Source: Escherichia phage ev_rybdy3
DNA length: 64,000 nt
Direction: 5' to 3' (one strand)
Sequence record: PQ819470.1
Under the pieces are notes generated by a model. That model did no database searches. It had not been told where the DNA came from and worked only from the letters and a program-made list of their open reading frames with translations. The translations under genes and the position numbers were made by a program. Below are positions 26,030-27,343 of this stretch, piece by piece. Numbering within the stretch: position 1 is the first letter of the stretch; every line of letters starts with the position of its first letter.

Positions 26030-27343
26030 ATGATTGTTATCCCGATTAACCAAATTGAAGATAAGGTTGCTCAACAACCTGATATCTCTGTTGGTCGTCA
26101 CTTCATTGAACAGTTGATTAACAACAACTTGATTCCAGATGGTATCTGTCCCATCATTACTGGTGGGGCTGTTCGTGATGCTGTCCTTAATAACATAGCT
26201 CCACATGACATTGATATCTTTATTGTCAGAGGACAAACACCAAGAACTCAAAACACTTTCATCCCAACTGATCGTTGGCAAGAGCTTGGACGGGAGATTG
26301 AAAGTAATGTGAAGGAATGGCTAGAGTCACAAGATATTGAATATGCATCACTTCTTGCTGAAGCTACAAACGAATCCTATGCTGGGGGTTCTCAATTAAC
26401 ATTCACTGATATTATTGAGTTTCAGTGGAATGGGGTTCGTATCCAATTCATGTTTAATTATCCTACTTCTATTGAAGAGGTATTGGATAATTTTCCTATG
26501 ATGTGCCGTGGTGCGATGACTCTTGACAACTTATTCATGACTTCTCACGGATATTTGGCTATGACTTCCCCTTGTCCAGTGGTTGTCTCTAGTCGTGAAA
26601 TCAGGTATGTTCACAAGAAGTGGCCTAACTCACAAGTGTTGAGATTTTCCTCTCCAGCAGTTGCGCATCAATACATGGCCCAAACTCGATATCTTCCCAC
26701 ACCTCAGCCAGTTAGTCATCTAGTCAATGGATTAGGTCAGGTTTCTCTTATTGAAGATACAACAAGTGCTCTATATTGTGTTAACCGAGACATGAGTCGA
26801 TTCTTTGGAATCCCTTATGAAGAGATTCAGATTATGTCTAGTCTTCACGGTTCTGGTCAGATTCATGCGTATTGGTCTGAGGGGTTGACAAATTTAACGA
26901 CTAACACGGGTGGTGATCTGCTTGGTCGAGAAGAGGAACCTAACCGACACAATGCAATTGAAGGGGTGTTTGTAGCCCCTGCAATGCGTCGAGCACAAGA
27001 GTCACGAAGAGAAAGCCCTACTCGTAGAACATCTTTTGAAGAAGCTCTTGGTATTACAAGTGATTCTATGGAGCGATGGATGGCTAGACCCTCTCGTGGT
27101 CGACCAAACGGCTTAACTGTTAGCGCACGTCAGTTCTCTGGTCAGGGTTTCGCTGTTGGTGATATCAACGCACCTGTTAGGGCTGTGTGGGCTGATGAAG
27201 ATATGGAACAGGATTTGGGAGATAGTCTCGCTGATCAATTTGTTGCCAACAACCCTGAAGTATTAGAACCTCAAACCCGTACAGTTCGGTTTGCCGATGA
27301 AGCGGGTCGTGGAATCTCTTTTGAAATAGACGAAAATAACTAA
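26030..27343 (+). CDS. Pol-beta superfamily nucleotidyltransferase (CCA-adding/poly(A) polymerase-like)
   Basis: GGAVRDAVLNNIAPHDIDIF matches GGxVRD...DxD head motif of class-II tRNA nucleotidyltransferases. Confidence 0.5.
   Translation: MIVIPINQIEDKVAQQPDISVGRHFIEQLINNNLIPDGICPIITGGAVRDAVLNNIAPHDIDIFIVRGQTPRTQNTFIPTDRWQELGREIESNVKEWLESQDIEYASLLAEATNESYAGGSQLTFTDIIEFQWNGVRIQFMFNYPTSIEEVLDNFPMMCRGAMTLDNLFMTSHGYLAMTSPCPVVVSSREIRYVHKKWPNSQVLRFSSPAVAHQYMAQTRYLPTPQPVSHLVNGLGQVSLIEDTTSALYCVNRDMSRFFGIPYEEIQIMSSLHGSGQIHAYWSEGLTNLTTNTGGDLLGREEEPNRHNAIEGVFVAPAMRRAQESRRESPTRRTSFEEALGITSDSMERWMARPSRGRPNGLTVSARQFSGQGFAVGDINAPVRAVWADEDMEQDLGDSLADQFVANNPEVLEPQTRTVRFADEAGRGISFEIDENN

Follow-up and report, generated by a model that had tools for sequence, protein, structure and literature searches.

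Escherichia phage ev_rybdy3 carries, on the plus strand of its replication module, a gene (positions 26,030 to 27,343) whose product is a cut-down relative of the CCA-adding and poly(A)-adding enzymes, not a true CCA enzyme, and whose nearest named relative – as far as sequence comparison can tell – is the phage anti-Gabija enzyme Gad2. All positions refer to the window, that is, the whole stretch of 64,000 nucleotides that was analysed (record PQ819470.1). The open reading frame (ORF) is a genuine gene, conserved among phiEco32-like coliphages, and it was not new to the literature: GenBank and PHROG name its product a nucleotidyltransferase, and the BASEL paper has discussed it. Added here are the failed tests for a CCA enzyme, the link to Gad2 and the status of a core gene of the replication module, together with a distinct architecture that combines an extended core, a proline (P156) in place of an aspartate, and a constrained, lysine-free disordered tail. 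No new function is established by the present analysis. The reading that we favour, and that we put forward as tentative, is an active nucleotidyltransferase acting on the end of a nucleic acid or on a host factor, which would protect phage DNA replication from host defences as Gad2 does.

The head-domain fold of class-II CCA/poly(A) enzymes is present in the protein. An initial annotation, made from the sequence of the window, had recognised a Pol-beta-superfamily nucleotidyltransferase with a class-II head by its N-terminal GGxVRD...DxD signature, and both motif and fold hold up: the peptide quoted there is correct, and the signature residues – G45, G46, R49, D50, D60 and D62 – are the same in all 26 cluster representatives of the family (mutual identity ≤50%). 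To judge from this conservation, the two-aspartate centre is intact; E130, considered as a third catalytic carboxylate, was ruled out, the position being E or Q within the family. Structure prediction, which the same annotation had proposed as a check, gave AlphaFold models with a class-II-type head: one of residues 1–252, built with eight diverse sequences (predicted local distance difference test score, pLDDT, 83.9; predicted template-modelling score, pTM, 0.81), and one of the full-length protein, built with 28 sequences, confident to about residue 280 and with pLDDT <50 for residues 283–437. They also amend the earlier description of the remainder of the protein, which is indeed unlike a CCA-enzyme body, but whose folded part reaches to about residue 282, so that only residues 283–437 are predicted to be disordered.

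The best structural matches are CCA and poly(A) enzymes, with poly(A) polymerase I (PAP I) ahead of the CCA enzymes by a small margin; CD-NTases score at most 7.0 in the fold ranking, family X polymerases 6–7 and MenT1 about 6. Since the alignments cover at most 179 residues of targets that are 344–415 residues long, the fold is that of a class-II head plus part of the neck, an assignment that we regard as solid. The combination of palm and fingers, thumb and 8-kDa domains that marks a family X polymerase (PolX) or terminal deoxynucleotidyl transferase (TdT) was not found in the protein, nor was a best fold or profile match to a CD-NTase or cGAS-like enzyme or a defence-system context. Readings as a CD-NTase, a MenT-like toxin or a PolX enzyme were set aside on the strength of the fold ranking and the context.

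A profile search, likewise suggested at the outset, gave a divided answer. The Pfam family PolyA_pol (PF01743) reaches 18.8 bits against a cut-off of 23, over profile positions 3–82 of 126 only (close homologues score 17.8–21.5 bits); two nucleotidyltransferase families of the PHROGs collection are matched, namely the protein's own, phrog_12715, at E 1e-244 and, next, phrog_1614 ('nucleotidyltransferase') at E 1.6e-7 over residues 35–155. PADLOC and NCBIfam scans returned no match. Motif A is the only stretch alignable by sequence to solved CCA enzymes, and a search of PDB chains with the protein and the family profile recovered nothing but motif A of CCA enzymes, at E 0.09–0.8, in matches too short to extend to motifs B–E. 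In class-II enzymes, the RRD pattern of motif B serves ribose recognition and the EDxxR pattern of motif D holds the base-templating residues. Judged by these sequence patterns, RRD occurs in 0 of 26 family members and [ED]DxxR in 1 of 26, there at a non-homologous place. The Pfam scan of the protein found no neck, body or tail domains for holding tRNA or RNA, and no canonical CCA enzyme stands among the 47 hits (E ≤1e-3) that an exhaustive profile search returned from 1.84 billion representative proteins.

What this search did return is a phage-only and, by that count, small family: about 30 clusters of true members, 274–482 residues long, and then proteins of about 200 residues at E 2e-7 to 8e-4. 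Foldseek comparison with viral models (BFVD) likewise retrieved, at E 2e-8 to 4e-4, small 'poly(A) polymerase head domain' proteins of Autographiviridae and giant viruses, and in IMG/VR the family profile matched five loci only, four of them known phiEco32-like phages and one a small Gad2-type enzyme. A 68-kb viral contig (L014) carries a 221-residue Gad2-type small nucleotidyltransferase (positions 5884–6549 of the contig; motifs IIAGGAVRD and FDFTV) and, about 0.6 kb downstream, a 288-residue ORF (7119–7985) in which DHH-phosphoesterase-like motifs (DHH, GGGGH) can be made out by eye.

Several lines of comparison lead from the family to Gad2. Gad2 (PF26128) matches most close homologues in precomputed annotations; on the 92%-identical homologue P0002 the match is marked '(weak)', with E between 1e-5 and 1e-3, and on the distant relative P0059 it is unmarked and hence stronger. 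The Pfam library of the local scan did not include PF26128, and the Gad2 control itself went unmatched there, so the evidence from this family consists of the precomputed annotations. Gad2 also matches phrog_1614 (4e-6), and one small protein (P0097) matches the Gad2 family, phrog_1614 and phrog_12715 alike. For profile–profile comparison with hhalign, verified Gad2 sequences from the supplement of the Gad2 preprint were combined with 120 collected homologues. The family aligns with the small phage nucleotidyltransferases at a probability of 99.5% (E 1e-22), a figure somewhat inflated by the choice of the small enzymes via the family profile, which leaves their E-values in the exhaustive search unaffected; the small enzymes align with the N-domain of Gad2 at a probability of 98% (E 1e-13), independently of that selection; and the family aligns with Gad2 directly at 72% probability (E 3.5e-5, 82 columns). 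Deeper alignments were needed, shallow ones giving a probability of only 35%. On these alignments, all three groups form one superfamily of reduced phage nucleotidyltransferases, in which the ev_rybdy3 family and Gad2 are sister branches around the small-enzyme hub phrog_1614, not nested one within the other.

Individual motifs tell a similar story, with one telling substitution. The 'FP..C' region of the nucleotidyltransferase lies where Gad2 and the small phage enzymes have 'FD..C'; the small enzymes keep the FD motif and the Gln that corresponds to Q139, and Gad2 has 'LQMIH' and 'FDFTVC'. We infer that the Asp of the 'FD' segment is equivalent to the motif-B Asp of CCA enzymes. In the basic helix, Y193 and K197 never vary, R189 is near-invariant, and an acidic residue occupies position 190 throughout; the same pattern is found in Gad2 as R151-x3-Y155-x2-K158-x-Y160, residues that pairwise alignment sets opposite those of the family.

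The initial annotation had described the tail as Arg-rich and acidic, and residues 242–437 do contain 19 Arg, 32 Asp and Glu taken together, and 0 Lys; Arg makes up 20% of residues 300–360, and the last 43 residues carry a net charge of -7. Among close homologues, residues 283–380 are 78–97% identical, with a ratio of nonsynonymous to synonymous substitution rates (dN/dS) of 0.04–0.34 against 0.10–0.14 for the fold, values which indicate that this segment is under purifying selection. The last 57 residues (381–437) evolve fast, with an identity of 0.50–0.83 with gaps and a dN/dS of 0.4–1.5. The tail is clearly functional, and it may anchor the enzyme to nucleic acid or a partner molecule.

Tails cannot be aligned between genera. 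All 27 family representatives surveyed nonetheless have only 0–2 Lys in tails of 54–267 residues, though these are rich in Arg and Ser, and many end on an aromatic note (WDW, RWQW, SRFSF, YDF, WID); the shortage of lysine is seen in residues 243–437 of the window protein (26756–27340) and in the tails of P0010, P0045, P0054–P0056 and P0060–P0081. The median ORF of the window has 5.9% Lys, and the nucleotidyltransferase is the second most lysine-poor of 52. Three large ORFs of the structural block, on the minus strand (54234–55265, 51386–52354 and 52367–53419), are very lysine-poor too, at 0.9–2.6% Lys, which shows that in ev_rybdy3 the nucleotidyltransferase is not alone in avoiding lysine. 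An overlapping gene behind the tail composition was ruled out, there being no ORF of at least 60 residues in the other frames of 26800–27343. That a disordered tail under constraint should exclude lysine so strictly is worth following up.

The gene itself is well delimited. The ORF list gives an ATG at 26030 and a stop codon at 27341–27343; an alternative GTG at 25973 would lengthen the reading frame, but all homologues begin MI(V/K)IP, and 26030 is therefore the true start. The protein, predicted to be acidic (isoelectric point, pI, 4.8), has a 100% identical counterpart in Escherichia phage ev_rybdy8, annotated there as 'nucleotidyltransferase', and the region 25400–28000 is 100% identical to that phage and 94–99% identical to many phiEco32-like phages (Kuravirus, Gordonclarkvirinae). 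The record of phiEco32 labels its orthologue, phi32_73, a 'hypothetical protein'. In phage SU10, whose authors place the orthologue among the early gene products, one peptide of it was detected by mass spectrometry in a lysate precipitated with polyethylene glycol (PEG). The gene is found in 97 phage records (98 match the surrounding 2.6-kb region), and for this reason it counts as a core gene of Gordonclarkvirinae, not an accessory one.

Table 1. Nucleotidyltransferase gene of ev_rybdy3, segments of its product, and immediate surroundings (positions in the window)
Feature	Position	Strand	Remarks
Primase/helicase, 596 residues	23687..25477	+	Pfam DnaB_C and Toprim; phrog_239 at 1e-175
PolA-type 3'-5' exonuclease subunit, 185 residues	25471..26028	+	Pfam DNA_pol_A_exo1 2e-8; phrog_38876 4e-76
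Sigma-70-like promoter match, TTGACC-18-TATATT	25988..26017	+	Weak evidence; count not above shuffled expectation
Nucleotidyltransferase coding sequence	26030..27343	+	437 residues; orthologue of phiEco32 gp73 (phi32_73) and SU10 CDS 74
Folded core, residues 1-282	26030..26875	+	N-terminal strand and helices 1-31; class-II-type head about 38-180; helical neck-like subdomain 188-282
Motif A, G45-D62, GGAVRDAVLNNIAPHDID	26162..26215	+	Glycine turn; putative catalytic aspartates D60 and D62
Family-specific core motifs Q139 ('IQxM' strand) and F155-P156 ('FP..C')	26444..26497	+	Q139 and P156 invariant in 26/26
Basic helix R189-E-I-R-Y193-V-H-K196-K197-W-P199	26594..26626	+	Conservation; helix 188-197 in models
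Predicted disordered segment, residues 283-380	26876..27169	+	Arg/Ser/Glu-rich, 0 Lys, conserved within Kuravirus; pLDDT <50
Variable acidic C-terminal end, residues 381-437	27170..27340	+	Indels among close relatives
dCTP deaminase, 177 residues	27353..27886	+	Pfam DCD 3.7e-34; always directly downstream

The location in the replication module, as first reported, is confirmed by the genes on either side, the primase/helicase and PolA exonuclease subunit upstream and the dCTP deaminase downstream (Table 1). This order of four genes is kept in phages Bas89 and SU7, whose enzymes are 39% and 32% identical to that of ev_rybdy3 over the N-terminal 252 residues, and in two metagenomic phages, L004 and L007 (enzymes 36% and 32% identical); the dCTP deaminase gene lies directly downstream in all four and in L009 as well. 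The order of exonuclease, nucleotidyltransferase and dCTP deaminase holds down to 32–35% identity, the context of the distant family members being that of P0056 and P0057. Between the TAA of the exonuclease gene (26026–26028) and the ATG of the nucleotidyltransferase gene there is a gap of 1 nucleotide, and in L004 and L007 the two genes overlap by 4 nucleotides, start codon upon stop codon: by gap or by overlap, the nucleotidyltransferase is translationally coupled to the exonuclease subunit. The promoter match sits in the 3' end of the exonuclease gene, and in the record of SU7 a promoter is marked at the corresponding site.

Further afield in the module, the family A DNA polymerase is split, the 185-residue exonuclease protein being encoded 9 kb upstream of a 614-residue polymerase subunit (35209–37053, plus strand), and nucleotide metabolism is represented by the thymidylate synthase ThyX (30377–31033, plus strand) and a dNMP kinase (42649–43260, plus strand). 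The only tRNA gene of the phage, for Arg-UCU (9093–9168, plus strand), has its 3' CCA encoded in the genome. Two further features of the surroundings may be recorded. HNH homing-endonuclease genes stand beside the primase/helicase and dCTP deaminase genes in Bas89 and in a metagenomic Kuravirus (L002 184–675 and 4834–5343; L009 4862–5371), not in the window. Upstream, at 13898–23467 on the plus strand, the window has a large early cluster for an amidoligase, a COOH-NH2 ligase, a glutamine amidotransferase, an ATP-grasp protein ('S6 glutaminyl transferase') and a gamma-glutamyl cyclotransferase, which is kept in L004 and L007 and resembles a peptide- or amino-acid-ligation system.

How might such a protein work? 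Under the explanation that we tentatively favour, it would be a catalytically competent, template-independent nucleotidyltransferase, built from a reduced class-II head and a short helical neck (residues 1–282) followed by a disordered tail of 155 residues. Through D60 and D62, it would move a nucleotide from an NTP or dNTP onto a hydroxyl group, a 3'-OH or some other; as target, either a host factor or the end of a nucleic acid would serve, not the CCA end of tRNA; and the tail would act as a tether to a partner, for example the replisome or nucleic acid. Biologically, the enzyme would shield the replication of the linear phage DNA from host defences in the manner of Gad2, the only member of the phrog_1614 superfamily with a proven biological function. 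According to the Gad2 preprint, phage SPbetaL7 becomes sensitive to Gabija once gad2 is knocked out, and Gabija is cancelled by a homologue provided in trans; its Gad2 is toxic, and AlphaFold2 predicts a nucleotidyltransferase domain in that protein. Two small relatives, fHe-Kpn01 Gp22 and Emajogi gp22, are also toxic when overexpressed (in E. coli or P. putida); Emajogi gp22, whose homologues are labelled 'Gad2 family protein' in some other phages, adjoins the gene for primase/helicase (gp23). Gordonclarkvirinae, for their part, resist nearly all of the defence systems tested in the BASEL paper.

A number of points weigh against this explanation. The direct link to Gad2 is weak (hhalign 72% over 82 columns, a pairwise BLAST E of 0.058 and a Pfam match marked 'weak'), the folded C-terminal half of Gad2 (about residues 200–400) is missing, and no similarity was found beyond the nucleotidyltransferase domain. 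Invariant P156 replaces the 'FD' Asp of Gad2 and the small enzymes, and chemistry or substrate may therefore differ; and since the family and Gad2 are sister branches around phrog_1614, function is not simply transferable from one to the other. Gabija was not among the systems in the BASEL phenotyping, and a 2026 review calls the mechanism of Gad2 still not elucidated. Furthermore, counter-defence genes are usually accessory and located in variable islands, and a core gene among replication genes fits a replication- or nucleotide-related housekeeping role equally well.

A bolder reading can be formulated, though we consider it improbable. The enzyme would be a replisome-tethered terminal transferase that has lost ribose discrimination, with P156 for the 'FD' Asp, and that tails or caps the 3' ends or nicks of the linear, terminally redundant phage DNA; this would hide them from defences that sense DNA ends, such as Gabija – which does so according to the 2026 review – and possibly RecBCD-linked ones.

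Among the rival explanations, the one that survives best, while still unlikely, is an RNA 3'-tailing enzyme like PAP I or a MenT-type toxin, which would mark host or phage RNA for decay or block host tRNA and contribute to host shut-off. The toxicity of the overexpressed relatives would suit such an activity, as would the early expression reported for SU10 and the Arg-rich central segment of the tail (residues 300–360), which could bind RNA. PAP I, however, leads the CCA enzymes in the structural comparison by no more than that small margin, the Pfam scan shows no PAP-type RNA-binding domain, P156 in place of the relatives' Asp hints at altered recognition of the nucleotide sugar, and the context that has been conserved is one of DNA replication.

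Distinctly unlikely, in our estimate, is a replisome accessory or DNA terminal transferase with no part in defence, which would work alongside the neighbouring exonuclease subunit on 3' ends, those of the linear phage genome or those of primers. Translational coupling to that subunit across the family, core-gene status and a split polymerase with its catalytic subunit 9 kb away all speak for it, and the aromatic or acidic ends of many tails recall the replisome-recruiting tails of T7 gp2.5, T7 gp4 and SSB. The protein is acidic, however, and has no recognisable DNA-binding domains, its tails are unalignable between genera, and relatives from the superfamily counter Gabija from an anti-defence locus of SPbeta-like phages.

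Repair or maturation of tRNA 3' ends, by addition of CCA, CC or A to ends damaged by host defences, was the first function proposed in the initial annotation. In its favour are motif A, with the same pattern as in CCA enzymes, the CCA/poly(A) enzymes at the top of the structural matches, and the presence of a tRNA gene in the window. Most of the results reported above go the other way: the near-complete lack of RRD and EDxxR patterns, the missing tRNA-binding body and tail domains, the low pI, the failure of the exhaustive search to reach canonical CCA enzymes, the CCA already encoded in the phage tRNA-Arg gene, and conserved neighbours that are DNA replication genes and include no tRNA genes. 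E. coli, moreover, possesses a Cca enzyme itself, and CCA is already encoded in its tRNA genes. The proposal must accordingly be regarded as improbable.

To our knowledge, a class-II head nucleotidyltransferase does not feature in any DNA-hypermodification pathway described so far, which counts against a role in covalent DNA modification or in an unusual-nucleotide pathway shared with the dCTP deaminase, for example one yielding DNA that contains deoxyuridine (dU); we hold such a role to be highly doubtful. It was the BASEL paper that suggested that the nucleotidyltransferase might modify DNA jointly with the dCTP deaminase, and the constant adjacency of the two genes agrees with this, as does the striking resistance of Gordonclarkvirinae to restriction-modification, with no modification or inhibitor known in them. 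Yet dCTP deaminase, ThyX and dNMP kinase together make up an ordinary route of dTTP supply, which argues against the published idea of dU replacing dT, and the relative, Gad2, counters Gabija, not restriction-modification; with ThyX and dNMP kinase present, a dU-DNA pathway was judged unlikely. A synthase of signalling nucleotides (CD-NTase/cGAS type), the second function suggested at the outset, or a maker or consumer of immune second messengers, is very improbable indeed, PADLOC giving no match and effector or sensor partners being absent from the vicinity.

The interest of the gene extends beyond ev_rybdy3. Phage replication modules widely include head-only class-II nucleotidyltransferases, one of which, Gad2, defeats Gabija by an enzymatic mechanism. 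Gordonclarkvirinae are abundant phages of broad host range and of relevance to therapy, and they show unusual resistance to those host defences that have been tested; isolates that infect E. coli K-12 now exist, and the BASEL phages Bas86–93 are genetically tractable. The identity of the substrate would explain a core gene of these phages and could solve how Gad2-type enzymes work; should the tailing or capping of DNA ends prove to be the activity, it would reveal the mechanism of the whole superfamily of Gad2 and head-only nucleotidyltransferases.

Set against known systems, the ev_rybdy3 enzyme is best described by what it shares with each. With class-II CCA enzymes and PAP I (PF01743; PDB 1MIV, 3H37, 1OU5, 3AQL, 4WBY) it has motif A and the head fold in common; those enzymes are basic, whereas it is acidic and devoid of the RRD/EDxxR patterns and the body and tail domains. 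A stand-alone CCA-enzyme head is known from S. pneumoniae (NP_344798.1, PDB 2LA3), but this protein is bacterial, has 191 residues and no tail, and scores below the full CCA enzymes. MenT and AbiEii toxins are likewise small Pol-beta nucleotidyltransferases and toxic; MenT3 is reported to add nucleotides to tRNA acceptor ends.

Closer in fold are the small head-only enzymes of phages (phrog_1614; fHe-Kpn01 Gp22, Emajogi gp22 and proteins of LKD16, LIMEzero and phiAS7), which have the same reduced head in 170–230 residues, without the long tail, and which keep the 'FD' Asp and an 'LRRGxRF' helix. To this the ev_rybdy3 family adds an N-terminal extension (residues 1–37), a long inserted helix (80–100) ending in 'WLED', further helices (209–282) and the disordered tail. 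Gad2 (PF26128; phrog_18122; SPbetaL7 ORF_159 and a Brevibacillus laterosporus homologue) resembles the family in being an acidic phage protein with a Pol-beta domain and a GG...DxD motif, and shares with it the 'h-Q-h-M/I' strand, the F-[DP]-x-x-x-C segment and the R-x3-Y-x2-K-x-[YW] helix. It differs in having GGxITS where the ev_rybdy3 family has GGAVRD, in a C-terminal half of about 200 residues that is kept across its homologues – in place of which the ev_rybdy3 protein has its disordered tail – and in being rich in lysine, unlike that lysine-free tail. Gad2 is encoded in an anti-defence locus of temperate Bacillus phages and the ev_rybdy3 enzyme in a replication module, and it is for Gad2 only that anti-Gabija activity has been shown.

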